UHGV virus genome: UHGV-1944538
Length of the DNA stretch: 11,431 nt
From: a virus
Reading direction: 5' to 3' (one strand)
Shown piece after piece: positions 36 to 11,431 of the stretch. The translations under genes and the position numbers were made by a program. The notes below the pieces were generated by a model that searched no databases, was not told the DNA's origin, and saw only the letters and a list, made by a program, of their open reading frames with translations. Every line of letters begins with the position of its first letter. Position 1 is the stretch's first letter.

Positions 36-68
36 ATGGCTAAAGTTCTGGTGCTTTTACATAGCTAA
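36..68 (+). pseudogene. wrbA: 5' stub of wrbA left at attL: native start codon and first 22 nt of wrbA fused to element DNA, reading MAKVLVLLHS-stop
   Basis: 36-57 atggctaaagttctggtgcttt equals the start of the wrbA ORF whose continuation (ttattattccatgtacgg...) is found at 11321 onward; after position 57 the sequence diverges and an in-frame TAA follows at 66-68. Confidence 0.7.
51..57. repeat. attL core GTGCTTT (shared between wrbA and element)
   Basis: Left junction matches native wrbA through position 57; identical 7-mer at the right junction. Confidence 0.6.
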
Positions 69-368
69 ACACGTACATTCAACTACCTGTTAAAAACAGG
101 ACAATATCAGGTGAATCTCTATGCAATTTAAAGGCATTTCCCCAAGTATCTAAGCAGTTTTACACAGATTCTATGCAGTATCGGTATAGTCCCTTTTTAT
201 CCTAACTTATTGAAATATATAGAGAATCTGTGAAGTCTCTTTTCAGGGTAAACTGTATCGTGTTAGTCGTCCCTCTCTCGACTCCTAGAAAAGTGCTATA
301 TACAGGACTATATGACGCTATTCATGCAGTTGGTCACATGGTGTAACTATCAAACCCTTAACGATTTC

Positions 369-476
369 CTACGTGAAAGTTAGGAGTTGATGGTTATAGT
401 TCCTTCGTAGTTCCTCTTAAAAAATCACTTACAGACATCTTAATCTCTATACAGATTTCACGTAGAACACGCTTAA
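369..476 (+). repeat. Diverged third copy of the inverted-repeat element: arms CTACGTGAAA (369-378) and TTTCACGTAG (456-465), followed by CACGCTTAA (468-476)
   Basis: Arms and 3' tail identical to the 70-bp repeats at 6514 and 8659, but the spacer between arms is 77 nt instead of 38. Confidence 0.5.
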
Positions 477-993
477 TGCGTAAAAGAGTCATTATGTTAA
501 AAACGCACTGTATACGTATCAGTACTGATTTATAAGGGTTTTGTTTATTTGAAGATAAGAGGCTATACAGCACCTTGAGAGCATGTCTTGTAAGTCATTG
601 ACATATAAGGTCACAGAAGTTTGTGTCTGTTACAGAGAAAACTGGACAGGACTTCACAGAGCTATAAAATGTTACAGCTATTGATAGGTGAAATCTTCTT
701 GATAGATGCTTTGAAGTGTGGTGAAGGTTTCTTGATGTGGAGTTAACAGATGCTATGAAGAAAGTCAATAGTTGGTTATAGATATTTTAACTGCTTTTGC
801 AAAGGGGGTGCTATATCGTGAATCTGGGGTACTTAACAGCCATCAATTGAGTGTAGATATTTTTTAAGATTATCGGTGAAGGGGAATGTAGAGGGAGTGC
901 TACGATTTTTATAAAAAAATTAGAAGATGAAAAATCACTGTATAAACTTTAATCAGACCTATCGACAAGTTTATGTCAGGTCTTTATTAACTA

Positions 994-1518
994 TCAGCTA
1001 AAATTCCTGTATCCATATTTACCATGCAATTCCAGTGATGCAGCATCATAGGCTTTTGCAGCTTCTTCTGCTGTATTAAACTGACCCAGATAATGAGATT
1101 TTCCATTACAGCGTATTGTAGCCCAGAACCCCTTGTTATCCACTCTTGGGTGTACTCCCTTGTAACCTGATTTTGTTTTCTTTCTGGGTATCATGTTTGC
1201 CTGATTCTGCTCTTTGGTAACCTCTCGAAGATTGCTAATAGCATTATTTAGCGGGTCACCATCTATATGGTCAATCCATAGTTTAGCTTGTTTACCATGA
1301 TATAGATAGAAAATAACCTGATGCACCTTAAGTATTCTGAACTTACCATTAATCCGACAACCAAAAGCCAGATATTGTCTTGGTTTAGGATTTACAAGTG
1401 AACCCTCGATTTTTACACCTTTTCTAAATAATGTTCCAGATTCAAAATCTGCTGTAATATTTTCATTGATGTATCTTATAACTTCTTCAGGCCATGCCTT
1501 GGTATACCTAGTCACCAT
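994..1518 (-). CDS. HNH-AP2 family homing endonuclease (N-terminal NUMOD4/HNH_3-like domain plus C-terminal AP2 DNA-binding domain)
   Basis: 174-aa ORF. HNH-type motif WIDHIDGDPLNNAISNLREVTKEQN; AP2-type C-terminus GYKGVHPRVDNKGFWATIRCNGKSHYLGQFNTAEEAAKAYDAASLELHGKYGYRNF. AAGGA about 7 nt upstream of ATG on the minus strand. Confidence 0.85.
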   Translation of the reverse strand: MVTRYTKAWPEEVIRYINENITADFESGTLFRKGVKIEGSLVNPKPRQYLAFGCRINGKFRILKVHQVIFYLYHGKQAKLWIDHIDGDPLNNAISNLREVTKEQNQANMIPRKKTKSGYKGVHPRVDNKGFWATIRCNGKSHYLGQFNTAEEAAKAYDAASLELHGKYGYRNFS

Positions 1519-1576
1519 AATATTCCTTATTTCAATTAACTTGTTGAGGTAATACTACCAAGAAACTTCATATCAT

Positions 1577-1604
1577 ATTTTAGATAATGATTGATATACA
1601 TCAA
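1577..1604 (-). promoter_or_regulatory. Candidate sigma70-type promoter for the HNH-AP2 gene (minus strand TTGATG-N16-TAAAAT)
   Basis: Reverse complement of 1599-1604 is TTGATG and of 1577-1582 is TAAAAT, 16-nt spacer, about 60 nt upstream of the start at 1518. Confidence 0.3.
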
Positions 1605-2369
1605 AAAACTATTAAGTTCTCGGAAGAAGACTATATAGATTAATGATGCTCTTATTGTAGGAGCATCTATTCCCAACAAGGGAACTACACAGAAACTAGA
1701 GAATATGCTCTGTAACACCTTCACAGTATCTATATCAGGTCAGATTCAGAGGTCTTGATAGAATCTTCAAAGGTACTTGACAGATAACTATGAAGTTGCT
1801 AGGAAGGGATGTTTAACGGGAGGAAAGATACGATATAACCCGAAGGGAGAGTATCATCTTAACAATTATTCTTAAGAGATACCTTGAAAAGACACTTAAC
1901 AGAACCACCAAGAAGAGAGGGAACGATAAGACCCAGAGGTAGTGACCTGTTAAACAGTTCGTTTCAAAGCTCTTAAGAGTCTGTTAAGTAGGGTCATGTG
2001 ACAATCTTACCATTTTGTCAATGCTTTTGTCTTTGACCTAAATCAATAAAATGTATCGTTTGATATGTTTTTAAACAAAATAGTTAAAAATCTTTTTAGA
2101 GGTGCGCTTCGCTTGTGTCACCAATATCATTCTTCCCTGTCTAAGAGGGAAGTTACAGGGCATTTCAAAGCCCTCAATAGGCAAACCGAGGAATACGGAA
2201 AACCGAGGGAAGAAAACTATTGTGATTACCTTGAACAAGGTCTGTAAAGGTCGTTTAAGAGGTCGGTTAAGAAAGGAGCTTCCCTCTCTGGGGTTATCGC
2301 TCTTCTCTCGATTAGTGGATTGATTAAGAAGACCTCTGAAGTTTCTCTGTGAAGGTGCTGAACAGCTAT

Positions 2370-2423
2370 TATATATGGCTAATTACAACTTATTGAAAAA
2401 TAAACATTTTTAGAAATTACTGT
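2370..2423 (+). repeat. 54-bp direct repeat, copy A (TATATATGG..ATTACAACTTATTGAAAAATAA..TTTTAGAAATTACTGT)
   Basis: Aligns without gaps to 2465-2518 at a constant 95-bp offset with about 5 mismatches. Confidence 0.7.
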
Positions 2424-2464
2424 TAAGGTTGCAGAGTTGTCTGTGAAGAGACTTGTCAGTTCTC

Positions 2465-2518
2465 TATATATGGGTGATTACAACTTATTGAAAAATAAGA
2501 ACTTTTAGAAATTACTGT
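2465..2518 (+). repeat. 54-bp direct repeat, copy B
   Basis: See copy A; both lie in the ORF-poor 1725-3111 region. Confidence 0.7.
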
Positions 2519-2827
2519 CAGAGAGGTGAATACTTGATAGATACAGCTTTCCGGTTCTGTCAAGCTATTTTTTAATAGATAGCACAAAGTGCTAAAGACA
2601 CCCCTATACCATCTCGTACAGGGGGTTTTGGAGGGATTAACGGGGGTCTGTATGGTCGTTATCCTTAAGGTCAAGCGTCCATGTACGACCGAACAGTCTA
2701 AAGACAACAAGCACCCTGACGAGGACGTAGCGAAGTAACAGACCTGCGAACAGACCCACACCTCCACCAGCCCACAAATCAGGTGACCCCAATTCCTGAG
2801 GGAGATTTACCATTAAATTTCCTTGTA

Positions 2828-2925
2828 AGACGCTCTCAATCGCATTCTGACACAAAAAAGTACCTGACCTTATAGTTGACCTGAAGAGGACGTTTAACTC
2901 GTTACAGAGCGATTGAAGAGGTCTG
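2828..2925 (+). repeat. Inverted-repeat-bounded unit I (98 bp): 5' block AGACGCTCTCAATCGCATTCT..CAAAAAA, variable middle, 3' block ..CTCGTTACAGAGCGATTGAAGAGGTCTG
   Basis: 5' and 3' blocks are conserved with unit II at 4468-4588; CTCAATCGC (2835-2843) is the reverse complement of GCGATTGAG-type sequence at 2909-2917, with an extended imperfect inverted repeat of about 16 bp. Confidence 0.7.
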
Positions 2926-3031
2926 CGTGCAATGCAATAACCATGTGACCAAATACATGGCCACGCCTTTATATTTTACTCTCCCCATAGGACCATTATA
3001 CCACAGATGTTAATAAAATGTTAAAAAATAC

Positions 3032-3060
3032 TTGACATTAGCCTTTGAAACTGCTAGTAT
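3032..3060 (+). promoter_or_regulatory. Candidate sigma70-type promoter TTGACA-N17-TAGTAT upstream of the 3112 operon
   Basis: TTGACA at 3032-3037, 17-nt spacer, TAGTAT at 3055-3060, followed by TGTATATATGAGTTAACAGA; about 50 nt upstream of ATG 3112. Confidence 0.45.
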
Positions 3061-3111
3061 TGTATATATGAGTTAACAGAATAATAACATCTTATGAGGG
3101 TCAGAATATGA

Positions 3112-3666
3112 ATGAGAGATGCAGAATTTAGAGCGATGCTTCAAGCATCAAGGGAACGTAACAGACACAACGGTTACAGCTACACAGACACCCCCACCAG
3201 CTACGAAGTCCCAGCCTTTACCAAATCCGAACGTAAAAACATTGAAGCGGTCATTCGTAGCATTACGCCACGAGACAGATATATGCCAACCAGAAAGAGC
3301 ACGAAGAATAGCTTGAAACCTTTCCTGATGAGCTTTGATTCTTACGAGCAATTACCATCAAAAATTGAAGATGTAATTATCGGTACTTGTCGCAGTCTTG
3401 GAAGGGATAATTATCACCGGAAAGTTTTCTATTTACTGCGAAGTCTTGATGAGATTAGTTCAGGCGCAATAACAAATTATCTTCAGCGACAAGCAACCAG
3501 ACTTAGCTACGAATTACCGTCTGATGGGTATTGCGCTAATTTAAGTACCATTTGCAGTAAAGTTATCGAGACAATCAATCATCATGTTGAGGTTGGTAAT
3601 ATCAACCTTACGACAAGTGAGCCAGACTTTGAATTTGACGTATACGCACAAGCAGAGGAATTTTAA
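3112..3666 (+). CDS. Hypothetical protein, 184 aa, acidic C-terminus; first gene of a four-gene coupled operon
   Basis: Long ORF downstream of the promoter-like site; GAGGG upstream of the start; stop 3664-3666 sits 1 nt before the next start codon. Confidence 0.7.
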   Translation: MRDAEFRAMLQASRERNRHNGYSYTDTPTSYEVPAFTKSERKNIEAVIRSITPRDRYMPTRKSTKNSLKPFLMSFDSYEQLPSKIEDVIIGTCRSLGRDNYHRKVFYLLRSLDEISSGAITNYLQRQATRLSYELPSDGYCANLSTICSKVIETINHHVEVGNINLTTSEPDFEFDVYAQAEEF

Positions 3667-3667
3667 A

Positions 3668-3955
3668 ATGAAAAACAAACACACTTTAACCCGTATTACA
3701 AAGACAGCCTTTGACGAACTTAACCGAATCAAAAACATTACAGGTCTGCCACACTCAGCAGTGATGAAGCTTGCAATTAACCGTGATATTAACGAACAGG
3801 ATTTGCTTAATAGTCGCTTAGAGGCTGCAAGACACCATATCAGGATTAAGCAAGATGACCTTGATAGTCTGAAATCTTTAAATGTTTTTGGACTGGATTT
3901 AGCAAGGTTACTAAGTATCAAAATTCACAAGTTAGCGGATAAATTGGGGGTTTAA
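3668..3955 (+). CDS. Hypothetical small protein, 95 aa (start placed at the ATG with an RBS, not at the track's upstream ATG 3584)
   Basis: GAGGA at 3655-3659, 8 nt before ATG 3668; the track start at 3584 lies inside the preceding gene. Confidence 0.65.
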   Translation: MKNKHTLTRITKTAFDELNRIKNITGLPHSAVMKLAINRDINEQDLLNSRLEAARHHIRIKQDDLDSLKSLNVFGLDLARLLSIKIHKLADKLGV

Positions 3956-4170
3956 TGCTATGCGTTACCTTTGAATATCACACGGATAAAATGATTCGCT
4001 ACATCTCCGACCTCCTGATTGAAGGAAACGGATTCGGTGACATCCACAACTCAAAAGATATTTTCATTAAAGCCATTGGCCCAAATGAAGTACTGAAAGC
4101 AGCAGTCAAGCCAGAATGGTTTGAGCGTCACAAGATTGAATTAGGTTATTGGGGTGAGGAGGTTTTATGA
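3955..4170 (+). CDS. Hypothetical small protein, 71 aa
   Basis: Start overlaps the upstream stop (TAATG at 3953-3957); GGGGG just upstream. Confidence 0.6.
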   Translation: MLCVTFEYHTDKMIRYISDLLIEGNGFGDIHNSKDIFIKAIGPNEVLKAAVKPEWFERHKIELGYWGEEVL

Positions 4171-4454
4171 AACCTTGGCATGAAGATGTTAGACGATATT
4201 TTACAGAACACCTTATCTATGATGAATCCAGTGATTCCCTGTGCTGGTCTGATGGAGAGTCAGTCACGATAAATACCGACGACTACGGCAACAAAACATT
4301 TAATATAGGCCGATATACTTTCTACGTGAAATATGTTGTCTGGTTCCTTTATCATGGCTATCAATCCAATAAGCAAATTATCCATCTAAATGGTAACAGA
4401 GCCGATACCAGACCAAAAAATCTTATGCAAGTCCGAGACTTTAAGAGAAATTAG
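4167..4454 (+). CDS. Truncated HNH_3-like protein, 95 aa, paralogous to the N-terminal half of the HNH-AP2 endonuclease but lacking the AP2 domain
   Basis: ATGA overlap with the upstream stop; GAGGAGG RBS. WHEDVRRYFTEHLIYDESSDSLCWS and YVVWFLYHGYQSNKQIIHLNGNRADTRPKNL parallel WPEEVIRYINENITADFESGTLFRK and HQVIFYLYHGKQAKLWIDHIDGDPLNNAISNL in the 994-1518 product. Confidence 0.65.
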   Translation: MKPWHEDVRRYFTEHLIYDESSDSLCWSDGESVTINTDDYGNKTFNIGRYTFYVKYVVWFLYHGYQSNKQIIHLNGNRADTRPKNLMQVRDFKRN

Positions 4455-4467
4455 AAAAACAGCTTCT

Positions 4468-4588
4468 CAGACGCTCTCAATCGCATTCTAACGCAAAAAA
4501 CTATCTTATTTTAGGGTGGGTAATACCACTGTACAGACTACCCCTGAAAAAGACTGTTTAGCTCGTTACAGAGCGATTGAGGAGGTCT
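4468..4588 (+). repeat. Inverted-repeat-bounded unit II (121 bp), homolog of unit I with a longer variable middle
   Basis: 5' block 4468-4500 and 3' block 4551-4588 nearly identical to unit I; it fills the gap between the 4454 stop and the RBS of the 4611 gene. Confidence 0.7.
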
Positions 4589-4610
4589 GGTAAAAAGGAG
4601 ATTTTAAGAA

Positions 4611-4940
4611 ATGAGAGAATTAAACTTCCCGCTACAGATTTTCGTTGATAGCGACACTGCTATGATGGTGCAAAGCTTCACTGATGCAGGTATTAGCATT
4701 GACTTTGACAGGCTGTTAAAGCTAATGGCTGAGAACTCAGAAGCAATTGAAGATTTTATTCAGGAAATTGAAACTGGTGACCCACGTTTTATGTTTCCCG
4801 TTACCGACTCAAACATGAAGCGCCTTATTATTGAGGAAACTAACCGATACAGCGTTAGCCCTGAAAAATATCTCAAGGCGGCTATAGTAATTTTGTACGC
4901 TGACAATGTTTTGGTTACGGATTCGAAGGTGGTGCATTAA
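4611..4940 (+). CDS. Hypothetical protein, 109 aa, acidic
   Basis: AAGGAG at 4595-4600 upstream of ATG 4611; clean ORF. Confidence 0.65.
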   Translation: MRELNFPLQIFVDSDTAMMVQSFTDAGISIDFDRLLKLMAENSEAIEDFIQEIETGDPRFMFPVTDSNMKRLIIEETNRYSVSPEKYLKAAIVILYADNVLVTDSKVVH

Positions 4941-5017
4941 TGGGCTTAATAATTGCTTGGACAGCTTTGGGTTTATTTGTTGGTTGCTGGGTAGGTAACA
5001 CAGTAAATAAGAATTGA
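4940..5017 (+). CDS. Candidate 25-aa single-helix hydrophobic peptide (MGLIIAWTALGLFVGCWVGNTVNKN), translationally coupled to the upstream gene
   Basis: ATG overlaps the upstream TAA; AAGGTGG at 4926-4932, 7 nt before the ATG. Not in the ORF track because of its size. Confidence 0.35.
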   Translation: MGLIIAWTALGLFVGCWVGNTVNKN

Positions 5018-5041
5018 TGTTACCAATCTGTTAAAAAGCTG

Positions 5042-5070
5042 TTGACAAATAACCTTGAGCATGACATAAT
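5042..5070 (+). promoter_or_regulatory. Candidate sigma70-type promoter TTGACA-N17-CATAAT
   Basis: TTGACA 5042-5047, 17-nt spacer, CATAAT 5065-5070, followed by TGTATATATAGG as at the 3032 promoter. Confidence 0.45.
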
Positions 5071-5076
5071 TGTATA

Positions 5077-5268
5077 TATAGGAAGAGCAATTTTTCCTAA
5101 AATCATATTTTCAATAATCCGATGGATGGATATTCTGAGTTGGAAAGGTGCAATGCTTTTCGTCATGGCCTTTCAGTTTAGTCTGAGAGGCTATCTCAAA
5201 AAGTCTTTGTTCATTCATTATTGAACCCTTACAGCTTTGCCCTAATCATGAGTTAGGGCGTTTTCTTT
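5077..5268 (+). ncRNA. Candidate small RNA of about 190 nt between promoter 5042-5070 and the intrinsic terminator at 5239-5268; could instead encode a small hydrophobic peptide
   Basis: Promoter and terminator bracket a region with no RBS-preceded ORF; the track ORF 5042-5224 begins at the -35 hexamer itself. An internal 23-codon frame (5152-5223, MLFVMAFQFSLRGYLKKSLFIHY) lacks a good RBS. Confidence 0.3.
5239..5268 (+). terminator. Rho-independent terminator: stem GCCCTAA/TTAGGGC, 7-nt loop, then GTTTTCTTT
   Basis: Perfect 7-bp stem at 5239-5245 and 5253-5259 followed by a T-rich tract. Confidence 0.5.
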
Positions 5269-5337
5269 AAGAGTTTTAAACAGAGCTTTTAAAGAAAGTT
5301 TTTCCTGAAACTTCGTTAACGTTATAAGCAAACCTCC

Positions 5338-5370
5338 AAAGCCCTTCACAGAAACGTTTAGGGCTTTTCT
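5338..5370 (+). terminator. Second, weaker terminator-like hairpin: AAGCCCT ... AGGGCTT then TTCTT
   Basis: 7-bp stem with a 14-nt loop and a T-rich tail; shares the GCCCT..TTAGGGC..TTT pattern with the 5239 hairpin. Confidence 0.3.
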
Positions 5371-5468
5371 TAATAGAGCATCTTTAATAAATCGTTAAGT
5401 CATCTTCTAAGTGTATTGGCGTTGAAGGTGCTCTATTAAGAAATAAACCACACTTAGAGGAAGTTATA

Positions 5469-6179
5469 ATGACAAACGATTTATATATTAACGGTAAAAA
5501 GGTTGATAGCTTCGGTGACTGGTCGCCACAGACTGAACATCCAGCTATCGCTATTCAGCGTCAAGAGCATGACAAGCGCATTGAGCTTGAGCAAGAGCTA
5601 AAGATGTCACCAAAAACAACCATCTTTGTGTCTCCTGAGCCTCAAGAGATGCCTGATATTTGCAAGAGTGAAGCATTATTTAATCTTGAGCGTGAATATT
5701 ACCCACTGCTAAAAGAACAGCGCCTTAGATTAGATGACGCTTACGACAATGTGAAGAACTTTGAAGAGACTGAAAAGCCAACTGATTTTGATATTGAAGT
5801 GGAAATTAGACAAAACCCATTCGTATATTACTCAGTTGAGGATAATGATGGTTTTGGTACAGCAAGAGAGAATATCTCAAAAGTTCTTCAAAACATCCCT
5901 GAAGGATTCCGTTTAATTGATGTCAGACCAGCTTCACGCGGTACAGGTTCATATATTTTACTGTCTGATAAAACAGATGAAGAGATTTGTCAGTTAGCTG
6001 AAAAGAATCTACTTGAGCGTCATAGCAAAAAATTAAACAGATTTAAGCAAGAGCTTGCTAACCAGCTTAGAGCTATGAAGCAACTAATCAGTGACTATGA
6101 AACGCAGAAGAAGGTTGCTATGCAAGCCGATATTGAGCAGCTTACGAAGATTTCTCAGAAATATAGCAAGGCACTTTAA
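5469..6179 (+). CDS. Hypothetical protein, 236 aa, acidic with a predicted coiled-coil C-terminal third
   Basis: GAGGAAG 6 nt upstream of the ATG; long clean ORF; the C-terminus has a heptad-like charged pattern. Confidence 0.7.
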   Translation: MTNDLYINGKKVDSFGDWSPQTEHPAIAIQRQEHDKRIELEQELKMSPKTTIFVSPEPQEMPDICKSEALFNLEREYYPLLKEQRLRLDDAYDNVKNFEETEKPTDFDIEVEIRQNPFVYYSVEDNDGFGTARENISKVLQNIPEGFRLIDVRPASRGTGSYILLSDKTDEEICQLAEKNLLERHSKKLNRFKQELANQLRAMKQLISDYETQKKVAMQADIEQLTKISQKYSKAL

Positions 6180-6201
6180 CTATGAATTAAAGAGGTGATT
6201 A

Positions 6202-6411
6202 ATGTTTGAAGAACGTTTAGAGACTATTCGGTCTGTTTGTGAAAACTTAAAGTTACAAAATAAGCCAACCTTAAGAATTAAAAACAAACGTCAAGTTATC
6301 ACCTCACACAAACCAAAAACACGCAAGATTCCAAAATGGTGTATTGACCGTATCCCTTCTGATGCTCAAATCATAGGTGAAACGGAATTACATTATCTTG
6401 TCAGGCATTAA
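6202..6411 (+). CDS. Hypothetical small basic protein, 69 aa
   Basis: AAGAGGTGA RBS 5 nt upstream; Lys/Arg-rich; followed by a terminator-like hairpin. Confidence 0.6.
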   Translation: MFEERLETIRSVCENLKLQNKPTLRIKNKRQVITSHKPKTRKIPKWCIDRIPSDAQIIGETELHYLVRH

Positions 6412-6463
6412 AAAAAAAGAATTGGTTGGGTGTATGAGATAGGTTCTATCGAATCTATAACAC

Positions 6464-6506
6464 GGGGAGAGATTATCGATATTATTCGGTAGTTTCTCCC
6501 TTTTTT
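6464..6506 (+). terminator. Terminator-like hairpin (GGGAGA ... TCTCCC) followed by TTTTTT
   Basis: 6-bp G/C-rich stem at 6465-6470 and 6495-6500 with a long loop containing ATCGAT, then T6 at 6501-6506, immediately before repeat copy 1. Confidence 0.45.
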
Positions 6507-6513
6507 GTATGTG

Positions 6514-6583
6514 TGCTACGTGAAATCTTCTGAACAGATATACCCACCAAAAATTATTTTTTACGTAGCTCACGCTTAACAGA
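6514..6583 (+). repeat. 70-bp direct repeat, copy 1, containing an 11-bp inverted repeat (GCTACGTGAAA ... TTTTACGTAGC, one mismatch) and a CACGCTTAACAGA tail; lies immediately upstream of the 6599 gene
   Basis: 67 of 70 identity with 8659-8728. Confidence 0.8.
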
Positions 6584-6598
6584 GGTGAAATATGAACA

Positions 6599-8647
6599 AT
6601 GGCACAATTTAAAGTTGATAGTTTTATCGTTGAGCTAGGCTTCAGCGAGAACGTTATTAAGGGCTTGCAAAGAGTTGAAAAGGCAGCTTTGCAGTCAGCA
6701 CAAAGAATTGAACGTAATTTGAATAGAGCGTTTAAGGTCGATACCAAGCAATTTGACAGCAATCTGACAAGTTCTTTGAAGTCAATGGAAGGAAAAATTA
6801 ATAAGACCTTTGACCGTCTGGAAGCTAGAGCAAAAAATACTAAAGCTTTCCAGTTTACCACCAGATTTAATGACACTGTTAATCCTCCAAAACAACCGAG
6901 ACAGCCACGAATTAGCGGAAACAGAGCAATCACAGCAGCTTATTCAGCTAATATGACCAAGCTGAAAGGTCTTAACCCAATTGTCGAGAAATACATTAAG
7001 AGCCAGTTTTACGCATTAAGTAGTAAAGCTGGTCAGATGGATAACACCAAGTTTAATGAAGCCCTTGCTAAACTAAATTCAAGTGTAAGAGAAGCAATCA
7101 CTAAAGCCAGAGGTCATACATCCACCAGCATTAACGGTGACAGAGCAGCTAATAGTCTTGATAGTTTGAGTTCAGCAGCAGTTAAAACAGCAGGTGCATT
7201 TATCAGCTTTCAAGCTGTACTATCCGCTTATCAGCGAGTAATGGAAGTTGGCCTTCAACGTGCATCATCGGAAAGAAGTATTGATTTCGTATTTGATAAA
7301 GATGCAGGCCAAGTAAAAGAGTTCACAAAGTCATTAGCTCAAACAACGGGTTTAGATATCGCTGAACTGCAATCACAGTTTGCTGGTTTTGGTGCTTCAG
7401 CTAAAGAGTCTATGGGTATTCAAGGTTCTGAAGAACTTTTTAAAAGTATGATTGGCTATTCTCGTTTAATGGGTCGAAGTGAAGAAGAGATTAAGCGAGC
7501 ACTGACAGCATTATCACAGATGGCTGGTAAGGGTCAGATTATGGCTGAAGAGCTTAAGGGGCAATTAGCTGAAGCTGTTCCTGGTATGGTTCAGGTATTC
7601 GCTAAAGCAACCGGAAAGACTGAACAGGAATTATTTGATGCCATGAAGAAGGGGGCTTTAAAATCTGCCGATACTCTTCAGAAGGTCACTCAGGAACTGA
7701 ATAGACAAATCACCGCTAAAGGTGGCTGGAAAGCTATTTCAGAAAGTACACAGGCACAGCTAGGGAACCTGAAAAACTCTTGGAATACCACGCTTGATAG
7801 TATCTTCAGAGGTTCTGAAAATGGTCTGCAAGATTTCACACGAAGCCTAACAACGCTTTTAAACGCTCTTGGTGGAAGTGGTAAAACATTAGGTGAAAGT
7901 TTTGGTAGCTTGATGAGCGATATGTCACATGGTGTCGATAACCTGACTGATATTAGTTACAGGGTAAGGGCGTTCTTTGACGAGGTGACATTGGCTTATC
8001 GTGGTTTAACCGATGAACAAAAGAAAGTTGTTGATGCTTTAGGTTCTGGCTTGATTAATAGTTTAAAAGTCTTGGCTGGTGTTATTGCTGTGAATAAAGT
8101 TGTTGGTGTAACCAGAAGTATTTACGGGCTTATGACTGCTATCACAAGATTAGGTCAGGTCGCTGATACTACAGTGGATAACGTGAATAGAAAGAACGGG
8201 AAACCATCAAGGTTTAATCTTGGGAATATGCTATTAGCTGGTAGTGCTATCTATGCAGGTTATGAGAGATTAGCTTCTACGCCTGAACGAATGGAAGCAC
8301 AAGCTAAATTACCAGAGCTGGCTAAAGAGTCTGGACTTAAGCCAGTATTTACTATGGACGATGTGAAAGGTTGGTTTAATAGTGCAGCTATGAATCTTGC
8401 TAACTTCCAGCATCCAGAATTAATCACCATGAGACAAGATGCGGCATTAACGAATACGGATATCCAAAGCCTGAGAGATGAAATTAGTGCTTTGAGCAAA
8501 CGTATTCAGGAGCCTGTGAAAGTTTCACTTGGTGGTGAAGTTGCCATTAAACCAGATGAAACCAGCTTTATGACCTTTAGCAGTAATATCTACGACCAAT
8601 ACGCAGAAGCTACGCTATTAAGTTCATCATTCCCAGAAGATGATTGA
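6599..8647 (+). CDS. 682-aa protein with a tape-measure-type domain (central GKGQIMAEELKGQLAEAVPGMVQVFAKATGKTEQELFDAMKKGALKSADTLQKVTQEL segment) and a coiled-coil-rich N-terminus
   Basis: Long ORF; the central segment resembles, from memory, the conserved domain of siphovirus/lambdoid tape measure proteins. GAGGTG lies 11 nt upstream of the ATG. Domain assignment not verified by search. Confidence 0.75.
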   Translation: MAQFKVDSFIVELGFSENVIKGLQRVEKAALQSAQRIERNLNRAFKVDTKQFDSNLTSSLKSMEGKINKTFDRLEARAKNTKAFQFTTRFNDTVNPPKQPRQPRISGNRAITAAYSANMTKLKGLNPIVEKYIKSQFYALSSKAGQMDNTKFNEALAKLNSSVREAITKARGHTSTSINGDRAANSLDSLSSAAVKTAGAFISFQAVLSAYQRVMEVGLQRASSERSIDFVFDKDAGQVKEFTKSLAQTTGLDIAELQSQFAGFGASAKESMGIQGSEELFKSMIGYSRLMGRSEEEIKRALTALSQMAGKGQIMAEELKGQLAEAVPGMVQVFAKATGKTEQELFDAMKKGALKSADTLQKVTQELNRQITAKGGWKAISESTQAQLGNLKNSWNTTLDSIFRGSENGLQDFTRSLTTLLNALGGSGKTLGESFGSLMSDMSHGVDNLTDISYRVRAFFDEVTLAYRGLTDEQKKVVDALGSGLINSLKVLAGVIAVNKVVGVTRSIYGLMTAITRLGQVADTTVDNVNRKNGKPSRFNLGNMLLAGSAIYAGYERLASTPERMEAQAKLPELAKESGLKPVFTMDDVKGWFNSAAMNLANFQHPELITMRQDAALTNTDIQSLRDEISALSKRIQEPVKVSLGGEVAIKPDETSFMTFSSNIYDQYAEATLLSSSFPEDD

Positions 8648-8658
8648 TAATAGTCGAA

Positions 8659-8728
8659 TGCTACGTGAAATCTCCTGAACGGATATACCCACCAAAAATT
8701 ATTTTTCACGTAGCTCACGCTTAACAGA
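8659..8728 (+). repeat. 70-bp direct repeat, copy 2 (perfect 11-bp inverted arms GCTACGTGAAA / TTTCACGTAGC), immediately after the 6599-8647 gene and upstream of the 8805 gene
   Basis: Near-identical to 6514-6583; the two copies bracket the tape-measure-like gene. Confidence 0.8.
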
Positions 8729-8804
8729 TAAAACACTTATATATCAAAGGCTTGGTTAAAAATGATTAAAATACACTAAGCCTTTGAAATCAAAGGAGAA
8801 TTTA

Positions 8805-9578
8805 ATGATTTACACTAATCAGCTTCGTTACACTGGCAAAGATGGCGTTTACTTCCACTTAAGAGATAATGTAGATGCCTTCTTAACTTTATCAGCAACT
8901 GAAAATATGGAATTTGACAGCCCTATGCAGGTAACTACACAGAACATGCAATCAGGGCAAACCGTCACAGATAATGTGCAAAGAGCACCCAGAACAATCA
9001 CTATTAGCGGTGTCGTTGTAGTTGGCTATGAAGGAAGCTTATTATTAACTCGTCAGGGTCAATTAGTAGAAAACTTCATTGACACTCTTGAAAGCTGGAG
9101 AGACCAGAAGCAAATTATTTCGGTCATCTGTAAAGACGGTATCAAAATTGATGATTCCATTATTACGAGTTTTAAAGCCTCTAAAGATGTTGGTATTTCA
9201 AATGGTCTAAGAGTCCAGCTAACTTTTCAGGAAATTAACTTTAAAGCTATTGTGGGTCAGACTGATATTTCATCTGCGACTGGAAAAGCCGCGACTACTA
9301 ATGATGGTGGTGCTACCAGTAAAAAGAATGCGGGTAACGTGACTACTGAACGCAATAACGCACCTATGTTGCTGTGTCAGGAACTGTACAGCTACTCAGC
9401 ATCTGAGCTATCTGATGAAGCGTTAAAAGCCCGTAGTAATTGCTCTAAAAATGTCACGGTGAAAGATGGTGTAAGCACCTTCTCAGATGCCGCTAATGCG
9501 CAAGCTTCAAAAGTGCTTAAGTCGGGTAATGCTTTACGGAAGTTTAGTGTGAATCCGAATAAGAAGGGCACTTATTGA
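8805..9578 (+). CDS. Hypothetical protein, 257 aa, with a Ser/Thr/Asn/Gly-rich linker ([30 protein letters not shown]); positionally a possible tail-module partner of the upstream gene
   Basis: AGGAG at 8794-8798, 6 nt before ATG 8805; the track's earlier start at 8784 is a TTG without an RBS. No confident domain assignment. Confidence 0.65.
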
Positions 9579-9594
9579 TTGGTAACAATACCAA
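9577..9594. other. Hairpin (ATTGGTA-ACAA-TACCAAT) in the 19-bp gap between convergent genes; possible bidirectional terminator
   Basis: Perfect 7-bp inverted repeat between the stop codons at 9576-9578 (plus) and 9598-9600 (minus); A/T-rich, so weak. Confidence 0.25.
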
Positions 9595-9597
9595 TTC

Positions 9598-11241
9598 CTA
9601 AGCGTCCACCTCTTCCATATCACCAGCAGGATAAATCCTTGTTACTGGTTCACCAAAAATAAGCATATCATCTAGTGACTGCATCTCATCGGTTGCTTCT
9701 TCAAGCGTTAAGGTGTGGTCATCTTTACCATCAAGAGGGAAACCACGAATCATATTTCCATTGTGAAGATATATATCAACCAGCTTTTCATTACCAGAAA
9801 CAACAATCTCTTTCACCAGACGCTTAATGATAATCTGGGCTTCAGTTCTCCCCTCTACAGACTCCATATCAAGACCGCTTAAATCCAAGCTTGATACAGA
9901 TTTTACCCTCGCCTTTTCTCGTGATAACTGAACTATCAGTTCATCTTTTTCTTCCTGCTTAATCCGTAGTGCTTCTTGAATCTGAGTGATGTTAGGAAGC
10001 TGTATCAGCGTCTCAGTGAGTTTTTCCAGTTCACTATCAACGGTGTTTAGTCTGCGTTGTAGCTCATCTAATTTAGCTGTGTCAGTAGCTTCATCGTGTA
10101 GCTGTGACAGTTTGCTGAACAGACGACTACAAAGCTGTGTATCAAGTAACTTTCTGGACACTGTACCGTAGCTACAACGGGACTCCTTATTACCATTGCA
10201 ACGGTAAGTACCTTGATAAACGGGTTTACGTATCCCTGTAGGAGTCATTACAAGCCCACACTTACAACGGATAAGCCCCTTCAGTATGTTCACATATAGC
10301 CAGTGTTCACCGCTGGATGTTTTCCCCTTCCCTGTTTCCTCTAACAGTTGCTGTACAGCGTAAAACTTAGAGTCTGTGACAATCTGAGGATAGAACCCTT
10401 CAATTTCTTCACGTAACACTGTTTTACGGTCTTCTGTAGAAATCTTAGCGGGAAGGTAACCTAATACACTTCGTGAAGTCAGGATGTGTTTAACGCTTAA
10501 TGCTGACCAGTTGCCATCCGGTTTCTTAGTCTTGGATATTCTGACCTTACGCTGATTAATGGTCGGGTAACCTTGTTCGTTTAGCCATTTGCAGATAGCA
10601 AACATCGACATACCAGAAAGACGCTTGTCATAGATGATATTCACCAGTGACGCTTTATCTTCATCAACGATGTAGTGTGAACCGTCTTCTGATAGCTCTA
10701 ACCATCCGGGGGCTTGCTTACCCATAGGCTTCTTAAGTTCTCTTGCAAGCTGTGTTTTATGGTTCCAGACCTGAGCTATACGCTTTTGCTTAACAAGAGA
10801 TTCTTGGTGTGCTCGCTCAGCTATGATGATGTGCTTAATCAACTTCACAGGGTCTGTTAATGCTGATTTGTCGTAGAGTTCACCATCTCCCAGAGTCAGT
10901 ATAGAGACCCCTTTCCTCAGTATCTGCCTGACATCATCTATAGCTGTGTCGATATCAGCCCTACTGAAGCGGTCAAAGTTCTCTACAACAATCAAGGAAC
11001 CTTCTGGAATAGCCTCAGACATAACATTTTCAAACATACGTCTGAAGTCAGAACCTTGATTCTTATGTTGCTGGTGAAAACCAGATTTACCCTTATCAAC
11101 ATATCTGTGAGCAGGAAGAAGGTAATAATCGTTTTTGTGCTTAGAGTAGAAAGCATCAATGAGGTTTGTTTGCCGTCTTAAGGAGTCTCCTGAGTCTTGC
11201 TCTTTAGTACTCCACCTGATGTATGTCACTAGCAGCTTCAT
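9598..11241 (-). CDS. int: Large serine recombinase (serine integrase) of the element
   Basis: 547 aa. N-terminal resolvase-type motif YIRWSTKEQ with a candidate nucleophile Ser; Cys-rich zinc-ribbon-like segment [11 protein letters not shown]...[14 protein letters not shown]; C-terminal coiled coil. Located next to attR and read inward. Confidence 0.9.
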
Positions 11242-11292
11242 ATCTTCGGACTATGCTTATCTAAGTGGTTCATTGAACAGGAGAACAATGAT

Positions 11293-11431
11293 ATGAGTGT
11301 TAAGGCAAGAATACTAGTGCTTTATTATTCCATGTACGGACATATTGAAACGATGGCACGCGCAGTTGCTGAGGGTGCAAGCAAAGTCGATGGCGCAGAA
11401 GTTGTCGTTAAGCGTGTACCGGAAACCATGC
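11293..11431 (+). CDS. wrbA: wrbA, NAD(P)H:quinone oxidoreductase, 5' part with element-supplied start ([46 protein letters not shown]); partial, runs off the window
   Basis: From 11317 the sequence and translation match the WrbA N-terminus as I remember it (native [43 protein letters not shown]); AGGAG at 11279-11283 upstream of the new ATG. Confidence 0.85.
11317..11323. repeat. attR core GTGCTTT
   Basis: Identical to 51-57; wrbA identity resumes exactly here. Confidence 0.6.

Follow-up and report, generated by a model that had tools for sequence, protein, structure and literature searches.

Single-strand initiation (ssi) and primosome hairpins of plasmids are the closest described counterparts of the repeat units analyzed here. 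Known from ColE1 (the n'-pas sites ssiA and ssiB), F, R6K, R100, ColE2, pHW126, pIGRK and pIGMS31, these imperfect hairpins of ca. 70-130 nt are non-coding, dispensable and located beside rep genes or iterons, often in more than one copy and on opposite strands. Eleven ssi of F, R6K, R100 and ColE2 are attributed to Nomura et al. (1991). In pHW126-type plasmids, a dispensable palindromic ssi-like sequence heads the replication module, and its loss leads to multimerisation and a rise in copy number. The two opposite-strand hairpins of RSF1010, ssiA and ssiB, lie on either side of the origin and initiate synthesis in opposing directions. Since plasmid ssi signals depend on host factors, they can be common to unrelated replicons. 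A further point of comparison is the injection-stop (iss) region of phage T5, in which palC is the pre-early terminator; the segment of this region that is relevant below has neither a name nor a function in the same work (Davison, bioRxiv 10.1101/866236). Here, we describe a hairpin-forming unit from a phage-satellite-like island whose conserved head is not island-specific: the motif is common to plasmid origin regions and virulent phages.

The window, i.e., the whole stretch of 11,431 nt that was analyzed (UHGV virus genome UHGV-1944538), represents an uncharacterised family of ca. 10-kb islands for which a literature search returned no match. The family carries Felixounavirus-derived tail genes, and a Felixounavirus is presumed to be its helper phage. 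A sequence-only reading of the window had proposed two units of 100-120 bp bounded by inverted repeats, and this anatomy proved correct. The 5' block AGACGCTCTCAATCGCATTCT occurs exactly twice in the window, as identical 21-nt copies on the + strand (2828-2848 and 4469-4489), and was absent from 200 dinucleotide-preserving shuffles even with 3 mismatches allowed. Likewise, the 28-nt 3' block CTCGTTACAGAGCGATTGA[A/G]GAGGTCTG has exactly two copies differing by 1 mismatch (2898-2925 and 4562-4589) and none in dinucleotide-preserving shuffles. Repeat detection returned these pairs as D6 (51 nt, 82%) and D8 (34 nt, 94%). The imperfect terminal inverted repeats, claimed at about 16 bp, are present in both units, where AGACGCTCTCAATCGC pairs with GCGATTGA(A/G)GAGGTCT over 16-17 bp and closes a long hairpin. 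The middles had been called different; they do differ in length and sequence but are not unrelated, as unit I aligns to unit II minus ca. 23 nt, plus substitutions. This deletion takes away the 5' arm of the inner hairpin.

Each unit is built as an inverted pair of ca. 30-bp arrays of 10-nt repeats (Table 1). The head has the general form GCTTCTCAGA-CGCTCTNNAN-CGCATTCTAA, and in unit II it constitutes the block common to plasmids and phages; its counterpart in unit I lies at 2828-2858. The 3' block of unit II reads CCTCCTCAAT / CGCTCTGTAA / CGAGCTAAAC on the bottom strand, corresponds to 2892-2925 of unit I and has a homologue in the IncX plasmid unit described below. Without its upstream decamer, unit II spans 4468-4589. 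The near-palindrome upstream keeps a fixed distance to units of types II and III, and is a perfect 13-bp palindrome in the islands L003 and L134/L136.

Table 1. Positions of the repeat units and of neighboring features in the window.
Feature	Position	Strand	Remarks
HNH-AP2 homing-endonuclease gene	994..1518	-	cassette about 927-1717
Non-coding region, 1.3 kb	1519..2827	.	no credible ORFs; GTTAAGA-like repeats
Unit I (type I, 98 nt)	2828..2925	+	5' block, shortened middle, 3' block
Divergent sigma-70-like promoters	2995..3060	.	predicted; consensus matches only
Leftward predicted promoter	3024..2995		TTAACA-18-TATAAT
Rightward predicted promoter	3032-3060		TTGACA-17-TAGTAT
Near-palindrome AAGTCCGAGACTTTA	4429..4443	+	20 nt upstream of unit; overlaps 3' end of HNH ORF in the window
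Unit II (type II)	4461..4589	+	with additional upstream 10-nt repeat AGCTTCTCAG; long imperfect hairpin
Unit II conserved head	4469..4499	+	10-nt repeats CGCTCTCAAT / CGCATTCTAA / CGCAAAAAAC
Unit II inner hairpin	4505..4552	+	TTATTTTAGGGTGGGT ... TACCCCTGAAAAAGA; kept in type III; 5' arm gone in unit I
Unit II 3' block	4556..4589	+	inverted counterpart of head; D8 pair

Unit I adjoins the right end of the non-coding region, which is presumed to be an origin or regulatory region, and lies upstream of the divergent promoters. The region contains 54-nt direct repeats (2370-2423 and 2465-2518), and positions 1896-1953 show 82% identity, in a match over 61 nt, to a repeat-rich intergenic region of Felixounavirus garuso. 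On the other side of unit I, the predicted rightward σ70 promoter would serve the operon. Transcription from the leftward one would read unit I antisense and then a hydrophobic 62-aa ORF (2625-2813, - strand). Unit II sits directly upstream of a ribosome-binding site, as had been noted before: a Shine-Dalgarno sequence, AAAGGAG (4594-4600), begins 4 nt past its end at 4589 and precedes the ATG of a 109-aa gene at 4611. No conserved -10/-35 elements were found ahead of unit II. Among the matches listed, all homologues of the 109-aa protein are at least 89% identical and hence provide no divergent leaders for comparison. The island encodes no primase, and no transposase fit to act on such ends was found in it.

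The sequence-only reading had let its interpretation hang on the existence of further copies, and these turned out to be abundant in islands, plasmids and phages. Unit II matched 538 places in 393 of 5426 E. coli genomes (7% of complete genomes), all of them chromosomal, and each examined island copy occupies one of three syntenic positions. There are two or three copies per island; L002 has a single unit. At all three positions, units I, II and III are co-oriented with the downstream genes. In the window, the HNH cassette occupies the site at which the related islands L003, L004, L005 and L007 have a unit III on the opposite strand. In L005, unit III (-) and unit I (+) form an inverted arrangement, ca. 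1.25 kb apart, that brackets the non-coding region; L007 shares this unit III position but lacks unit I. Near-identical type III units (92-94%) occupy two separate positions, depending on the island. Conservation is far higher in head and tail than in the middle, and the units persist in islands whose identity elsewhere is only 70-90%. A 16-base pattern scan of genome contigs gave nearly exclusively chance matches, the sole relevant one being an Escherichia albertii copy (L020).

Two plasmid groups have whole homologous units, comprising head and tail. In IncX plasmids (1438 PLSDB records), the unit lies ca. 600 bp from 22-bp pir-type iterons and ca. 960 bp upstream of rep, with the block oriented as rep. 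In ColE2-like (Col156) and small rep-mobQ plasmids (1946 records), it lies 150-300 bp upstream of rep. The head adjoins replication genes in thousands of E. coli plasmids, and the homologues share the siting of ssi beside an origin or rep gene; for the island, such a siting is presumed from the units that flank its repeat-rich non-coding region. The head alone occurs in jumbo and other large phages as well as in T5 and T5-like phages. In the latter, it is placed between palC and palD, within the injection-stop Repeat Region 3, which is rich in DnaA boxes; in jumbo phages it is sited in ordinary intergenic regions. Among the copies examined from T5-like phages, jumbo phages and ColE2-like/rep-mobQ plasmids, the block runs opposite to its neighboring gene or genes. 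Between replicon types, heads are 84-90% identical over 30-37 nt. The 10-nt period is maintained in islands, plasmids and phages, and two variable bases of the middle repeat are free to change (CA, GT, AA, GA, AT, AG). Phage copies were recovered solely with the unit II query at a lax E-value, and unit I as query found nothing in the phage collection. No relevant match emerged from a literature search for the motif as a text string. Two candidate relationships were rejected. For the ColE2-type copy as a copy-control antisense-RNA gene, a weak repBA-leader-like signal adjoins rep, apart from the unit, and the conservation of the block across replicons disfavors this reading, as such an antisense RNA determines specificity. 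The 85-kb contig L142 showed no relation to Felixounavirus.

Folding potential was compared with that of shuffled sequences. On its two strands, unit II reached z = -5.9 and -5.4 as RNA and -4.9 and -4.5 as DNA, and units II and III as DNA gave z = -4.5 to -5.6 on both strands, i.e., stable imperfect single-stranded DNA hairpins. Across types II and III (ca. 11 distinct sequences in two clusters), each type folds well (z = -3.7 to -6.6). Unit I folds marginally better than shuffles on both strands (z about -2.0 to -2.7) and plasmid units slightly so (z = -1.2 to -1.7); as DNA, both are weaker than types II and III (z = -1.2 to -2.1). The two strands do not differ in folding, either as RNA or as DNA, except that type III folds better on the - strand. 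In 4 of 5 type III copies, one change creates an A-C mismatch on the + strand and a G-U pair on the - strand. RNAalifold detected no structure common to types II and III in these sequences (-10.45 kcal/mol, 2 covarying pairs). No Rfam family matched the window units, phage loci or plasmid loci at E<1.

Together, the repeats, the hairpin potential of both strands, the homology to plasmids and phages, and the association with origins and rep genes lead us to a tentative reading that we regard as quite possible, if short of probable: the units would be DNA-level, origin-associated elements, most plausibly single-strand initiation (priming) hairpins that depend on a host factor. As cis-acting accessory elements of the island's replication region, they would belong to a module common to enterobacterial plasmids, virulent phages and satellite-like islands. 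Exposure of one strand may allow a unit to extrude a 100-120 nt hairpin. If the excised island replicates, presumably starting in the adjacent non-coding region, a strand would be displaced on which this single-stranded hairpin and its conserved head could be recognized by a host replication factor. At the hairpin, this putative priming factor would direct primer synthesis, making the unit an ssi or primosome-loading signal. That the block is conserved across unrelated replicons with only the host in common points to host-factor recognition. The inverted bracketing of the non-coding region in L005 and the Felixounavirus-like repeats therein support the reading, as do the equal folding of the strands, the lack of promoter-like hexamers before plasmid copies, the results with Rfam and RNAalifold, and the published description of an ssi-like sequence in pHW126-type plasmids. 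Other observations count against it. Unit II is located between genes, at a distance of 1.6 kb from the non-coding region and in a leader-like placement before a Shine-Dalgarno sequence, and co-orientation with downstream genes at three positions also fits a transcription-linked role. Plasmid units fold weakly, and the intergenic siting of the jumbo-phage block is ordinary. Among described priming signals, G4 3860-4030 (oric) and phiX174 2270-2410 (the n' site) have no similarity to the units, and the supplementary Frpo/ssi set of Samuel et al. 2024 (PMC11541004) does not contain the block. The unit stems contain no TTGACA/TATAAT-like pair and hence no Frpo-type single-strand promoter hexamers.

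A rather unlikely alternative in our estimate is that the units are cis-acting RNA leaders, i.e., the 5' part of operon mRNAs, serving as stabilizers, as RNase III-type processing sites or in Nus-factor-dependent, boxA-like anti-termination (CGCUCU...); in another version, an antisense unit I RNA from the leftward promoter would pair with the unit II leader. The shared orientation of units and genes, the unit II placement abutting a ribosome-binding site and the very negative z-scores of unit II and type III all argue for such a role. Moreover, the inner helices of types II and III appear compensatory by eye (UCU/AGA versus CCCC/GGGG, AAAC/GUUU versus UUUU/AAAA), and CGCUCUGUAAC of type III agrees with the rrn boxA core, GCUCUUUAAC, at 9 of 10 positions. 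Depending on the variant, the match to this NusB/NusE-site core covers 7 to 9 of 10 positions, and the UU positions are hypervariable. The missing common structure, the better folding of the type III - strand and the lack of an Rfam match speak against an RNA, as do the copies whose block faces their neighboring genes in T5-like and jumbo phages and ColE2-like plasmids. Neither unit II nor the plasmid copies are preceded by conserved -10/-35 elements. In unit I, one arm of the inner hairpin is gone and the whole unit precedes the rightward promoter, and in L002 its single unit leaves no antisense partner. For these reasons, the structured RNA proposed by the sequence-only reading appears weak. 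The -10-like hexamers seen 7-9 nt ahead of the block were also considered as a sign of a transcription start; as neither unit II nor the plasmid copies have them, we dropped this idea. A lambda-like boxB (CCCUGAAAAAG / CCUGAAGAGG) and a hammerhead were rejected as candidates, their required second arm and required core, respectively, being missing.

The strict decamer period in islands, plasmids and phages would also suit a binding array on duplex DNA, in which three to four repeats per arm, in two inverted arms, act like iterons or operators and are bound cooperatively on one helix face by a host or element protein, the hairpin being a by-product. Candidate binders of such an array include a replication initiator, a nucleoid protein and a small serine recombinase. 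In line with this idea, a related tandem pair, ACGCTCTATAA-AGCTCTATAAC, and TACAGAGC repeats occur in the repeat-rich stretch between genes of Felixounavirus garuso, the conserved palindrome AGTCT-N-AGACT lies 20 bp upstream of the unit, and in L003, L004, L007 and a second island family (L168) the gene of a small serine recombinase lies downstream of the unit. Units without a small recombinase, however, are seen in the window and many other islands, and no candidate binding protein is common to plasmids, T5-like phages, jumbo phages and islands. The upstream palindrome is absent from the helper phage, and neither palindrome AGTCTNAGACT nor motif GAGACTTTA is enriched in helper-type phage. As iterons the repeats failed, with a 10-nt period instead of tandem 17-22 bp repeats and a distribution over replicons with unrelated Rep proteins. 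In islands, the variable bases of the middle repeat change together with their partners in the other arm, which speaks for intrastrand pairing, and we regard the duplex array as unlikely. A miniature inverted-repeat element (MITE) that transposed within the island, the other identity proposed from the sequence, is scarcely credible by now and largely refuted. Size, terminal inverted repeats, copy number per island and near-identical type III units at two positions would fit such an element. Yet no target-site duplications were found at the flanks of unit I (ccttgta / cgtgcaa) or unit II (gcttctc / gtaaaaa), and all 538 places are chromosomal, with every examined copy at one of the three syntenic positions. 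'Empty' sites carry a different leader or the HNH cassette in place of a clean excision, the island has no transposase for such ends, and plasmid homologues are fixed beside rep or iterons. The sequence-only reading was right about the anatomy and only partly supported overall, as neither identity it proposed holds up well. A functionless local segmental duplication that is palindromic by chance is highly improbable as well. Unit I does look decayed, with its 23-nt deletion and weak folding z-score, but the distribution of the module contradicts this explanation: head and tail are conserved far above the middle in otherwise diverged islands, and the head recurs in thousands of plasmids and several phage lineages.

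If the units are indeed priming or origin-accessory signals, they would mark where and how this island family replicates and provide a handle for testing the island as a satellite of Felix O1-like lytic phages. A broader and more doubtful extension is that the three-decamer block SCTCTMRAA-CGCTCTNNAN-CGCATTCTAA is a host-factor site exploited by IncX and ColE2-like plasmids, T5-like and jumbo phages, and at least two satellite-like island families. It could then represent a priming or establishment signal of a new class in wide use, or a shared small RNA 5' end, distinct from G4-, phiX174-, ABC- and Frpo-type signals. In that case, its position within the first-step-transfer DNA of T5 would tie the block to the earliest events after DNA entry. 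The same 30-nt block adjoins plasmid origins and recurs in the injection-stop region of T5 and in jumbo phages, which suggests that a single host-dependent mechanism may explain several non-coding regions annotated as 'repeats'.

Compared with known systems, the units share small size and terminal inverted repeats with MITEs and REP-like palindromic repeats, but differ in having no target-site duplications or dispersed sites and in occupying fixed syntenic positions inside mobile replicons. With boxA/nut elements (lambda nutL and nutR, rrn boxA), they have in common a CGCTCT core followed by an A-rich stretch; unlike in boxA/nut, the UU positions vary freely, the block is often antisense to its neighbors and no boxB-like hairpin is conserved. 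In the T5 iss, the head (...CGCATTCTAACGCG...) maps to about 9272-9292 of AY587007, by paired DnaA boxes, and this segment is conserved in >500 matching T5-like phage records. T5-like phages contain only a compact version of the unit of ca. 85 nt, and the iss model concerns DNA entry, in contrast to the replication considered for the island. The RSF1010 sites are 40 nt long, are recognized by the plasmid's own RepB' primase and have no sequence similarity to the units, whereas their layout matches the arrangement in L005, where unit III (-) and unit I (+) bracket the non-coding region. The pIGRK primers that flank the pHW126-family ssi-like palindrome look different from the unit sequence. Unlike ssi, island units lack GAAGCGG, though the IncX unit has one, and the unit homologues of IncX (R6K family) and ColE2-like plasmids sit at ssi-type places.

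The window holds two inverted-repeat-bounded units, as the sequence-only reading had described, and both are real and non-random. The 21-nt head AGACGCTCTCAATCGCATTCT has exactly two plus-strand occurrences, at 2828 and 4469, as does the 28-nt tail CTCGTTACAGAGCGATTGA(A/G)GAGGTCTG, at 2898 and 4562; neither was matched in 200 shuffled sequences at up to three mismatches. The two blocks form imperfect inverted repeats, and their pairing closes a long hairpin. The head block consists of three or four tandem 10-nt repeats, and the island tail repeats this array on the opposite strand. Compared with shuffled sequences, unit II folds strongly both as RNA (z = -5.9 and -5.4 on the two strands) and as DNA (z = -4.9 and -4.5), and the folding of unit I is marginal (z about -2). 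When further copies are aligned, unit I corresponds to unit II less ca. 23 nt, the 5' arm of the inner hairpin being gone. The earlier placement of unit II directly upstream of a ribosome-binding site also holds: the Shine-Dalgarno sequence of a 109-aa gene begins 4 nt past the unit's end.

Both units lie in an island of ca. 11.3 kb (about 36-11300) next to wrbA in E. coli, with both ends matching the wrbA locus. Besides a large serine recombinase gene, the island carries tape-measure and Dit-like genes whose matching segments (ca. 5% of the window) share 93-95% DNA identity with Felixounavirus genes; the rest of the gene set is two HNH endonuclease genes plus several ORFs of unknown function. 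Related islands, with varied integrases and sites (wrbA, mdtG, yciI, yecN), are present in ca. 7% of complete E. coli genomes (several hundred). We infer that the island is probably a satellite of, or a tail-gene-carrying parasite on, Felix O1-like lytic phages; a search found no literature on this island family. A 70-nt direct repeat (96% identical) holding an internal hairpin CTACGTGAAA...TTTTTACGTAG flanks the tape-measure gene on both sides, outside the phage-homologous segment, and its core recurs near the island's left end. This repeat could be a promoter/terminator cassette or a recombination module for tail-gene swapping.

Coordinates of features in the window and of related elements in fetched loci (L numbers) of other genomes
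Feature	Position	Strand	Remark
Core of 70-nt repeat	456-492	-	
Core of 70-nt repeat	682-707		
HNH-AP2 endonuclease gene	994-1518	-	cassette 927-1717
Marked stretches of non-coding region	1896-1953; 2220-2280; 2370-2423; 2465-2518		
62-aa hydrophobic ORF (MVNLPQELGSPDLWAGGGVGLFAGLLLRYVLVRVLVVF...)	2625-2813	-	good Shine-Dalgarno; directly past antisense of unit I
Unit I	2828-2925	+	
Leftward promoter-like site	3024-2995	-	
Rightward promoter (predicted)	3032-3060	+	
95-aa HNH ORF	4167-4454	+	3' end inside conserved sequence just upstream of unit II
Unit II	4468-4589	+	
70-nt direct repeat	6514-6583; 8659-8728		
Tape-measure protein gene	6599-8647		
Dit-like tail/baseplate protein gene	8784-9578		
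Large serine recombinase gene	9598-11241	-	
Type I units			ca. 98 nt; always immediately upstream of first rightward operon
Type II units			121 nt; always immediately upstream of 109-aa gene homologue
Type III units			ca. 119 nt; ca. 70% identical to type II, 92-97% among own copies
Unrelated leader, ca. 138 nt	L006 8510-8655		
Unrelated leader, ca. 138 nt	L005 4093-4230	-	
Unrelated leader, ca. 138 nt	L003 3848-3985	-	

The sequence-only reading had allowed for a local duplication should no further copies exist. The copy search pointed in the opposite direction and showed the module to be very widespread: unit II alone matched 538 places, all chromosomal, in 393 of 5426 genomes. From nine fetched loci and eight IMG/VR contigs, three sequence types were defined (see table). 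Type III occupies the type II position in L002. Its copies in L003, L004, L005 and L007 are on the opposite strand, where the non-coding region has its left edge; if the island has a small serine recombinase gene, the unit is located upstream of that gene. In the window, the HNH-AP2 cassette takes this third position in place of unit III, and some islands carry at the type II position an unrelated structured leader that has a perfect stem of 9 bp (GAGTGAGAC/GTCTCACTC) plus a GTAACC/GGTTAC hairpin. Unit positions are thus three and fixed, with units swapped in and out as cassettes. The leader retains CTCTGTAAC-CGCAT and could therefore derive distantly from the unit. Both HNH endonuclease genes are located at unit positions; such conserved non-coding modules may serve as targets for homing endonucleases or be exploited by them. 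Apart from unit III, a minimal island of ca. 4.3 kb (L004 4575-9050; E. coli EC21Z-147, mdtG locus) has only two serine recombinases, one large and one small, and a hypothetical gene. It could be a relative in decay or the most compact mobile core that retains the unit. A second, unrelated island family at tRNA-Thr/proA of E. coli chromosomes (L168 5990-6110, L169), with genes for a major capsid protein and a small serine recombinase, has a related unit (CTCTAAAACGCTCTAAAACGCGTTCTAACG ... GTTTAGCTCG) within its own non-coding region of ca. 1.5 kb.

In the window, the region 1519-3100 (1.3-1.6 kb) contains no credible ORF, and its part at 1519-2827 carries GTTAAGA-like short repeats and a pair of 54-nt direct repeats 95 nt apart. 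This region matches the repeat-rich intergenic region (48.95-50.6 kb) of Felixounavirus garuso at 82% over 61 nt, and the two regions also share GTTAAGA-type repeats and a related tandem ACGCTCTATAA-AGCTCTATAAC, which suggests that the island mimics an origin or regulatory region of its helper. Unit I lies upstream of a good predicted rightward promoter. From the leftward promoter-like site, transcription could yield an antisense unit-I RNA and then enter the 62-aa hydrophobic ORF, which lies within a G+C-rich stretch (2600-2830). The ORF could encode a toxin or a small membrane protein, with an antisense RNA or a leader as its control; L002 carries another small hydrophobic ORF at the corresponding place. 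Such an arrangement suggests a P4- or P1-like antisense scheme, yet the L002 island has a single unit and hence no partner for an antisense RNA.

At a lax threshold, unit II gave 30-nt matches in T5-like and jumbo phages, where the block reads ...CTAAAACGCTCTCAAACGCATTCTAACGCG... (a T5-like phage) or ...CCAGACGCTCTCAAACGCATTCTAAGCG... (a Seoulvirus). An IMG/VR scan with the pattern ACGCTCTNNANCGCATTCTAA returned 25 stretches, eight in islands and the remaining 17 from large phage contigs (85-350 kb) together with a 4.7-kb contig. The invariant columns of the block alignment are partly imposed by the search pattern itself; a chance match is disfavored because positions outside the pattern are shared too (CTAAA before, GCG(G/A)TTTT after). 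In T5, the block (about 9272-9292 of AY587007) lies in the left terminal repeat (locus L158 1274-1330; AY587007 about 9250-9305), between the pre-early terminator palC and the palindrome palD; a LexA-box-like palindrome (TACTGTATATTTATACAGTA) and DnaA boxes immediately precede it. The block is part of the DnaA-box-rich Repeat Region 3, which contains the injection-stop signal. The segment is conserved in >500 T5-like phage records, and the paper on the T5 injection-stop region assigns it no name and no function (bioRxiv 10.1101/866236). In most phage contexts the flanking genes are on the opposite strand to the block, and predicted folds around it are unlike between phage lineages.

Matches to the consensus block also occur in 1285 of the 5426 E. 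coli genomes, and 1277 matched places are plasmid-borne. An IncX4 plasmid carries a whole unit, head and homologous tail (CAGAGCGCGATTCAGGGCTTCT), ca. 600 bp from six 22-bp pir-type iterons and ca. 960 bp upstream of rep; this IncX-type unit is present in 1438 PLSDB records. A second plasmid form (1946 records) is hosted by ColE2-like (Col156) and small rep-mobQ plasmids, where it is oriented away from rep, 150-300 bp upstream of that gene, and also occurs in a Col-type remnant within pUTI89. Heads of island, plasmid and T5-like copies are 84-90% identical over 30-37 nt, and the folding of plasmid units is only weakly better than that of shuffled sequences.

The sequence-only reading had proposed either a miniature inverted-repeat element transposed within the island or a structured RNA. 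We rejected the former as highly improbable: the unit flanks show no target-site duplication, neither copies at unrelated sites nor precise empty sites were found among those examined, and the island encodes no transposase matching the unit ends. A transcription-linked role, for example as a structured RNA leader, is unlikely, even though it would better explain that every island copy is co-oriented with the genes downstream and that unit II touches a ribosome-binding site; by eye, some inner helices also show compensatory differences between types II and III. Points against a structured RNA are, however, more numerous. Rfam gave no matches at E<1 for the window, 13 phage loci or the plasmid loci, and the available covariation does not support the claim, as RNAalifold recovered no shared structure from 11 distinct type II and III sequences (consensus energy -10.45 kcal/mol, only two covarying pairs). 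Type III folds better on the minus strand (z = -5.8 and -6.6) than on the plus strand (-4.5 and -3.7), and its commonest substitution makes a G-U pair on the minus strand only. Moreover, only half of the inner hairpin is left in unit I, which sits upstream of the rightward promoter, and no conserved promoter precedes unit II. An array bound as duplex DNA, to which the strict 10-nt periodicity of the repeats would point, seems quite unlikely.

We tentatively favor a DNA-level, origin-associated accessory element, most likely a priming hairpin of the single-strand initiation (ssi) type. The block would serve as a recognition site for a host factor used by otherwise unrelated replicons, which is the simplest reading because these replicons share only their hosts. 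Its neighbors are consistent with such a site: rep genes and iterons on plasmids, paired DnaA boxes in T5, and a repeat-rich non-coding region in the islands. Comparisons of the block with G4 oric, the phiX174 n' site and the known Frpo/ssi set revealed no similarity. In L005, units III and I lie in inverted orientation ca. 1.25 kb apart on both sides of the non-coding region, recalling paired ssi signals on opposite strands. ColE1-type plasmids load the PriA primosome via ssiA/ssiB hairpins, and the replication module of small pHW126-family plasmids is reportedly headed by a dispensable, ssi-like palindrome whose loss leads to multimers and higher copy number. The units are best filed as a new member, in a new context, of the origin-associated hairpin signals known from plasmids, with priming as the proposed mechanism.
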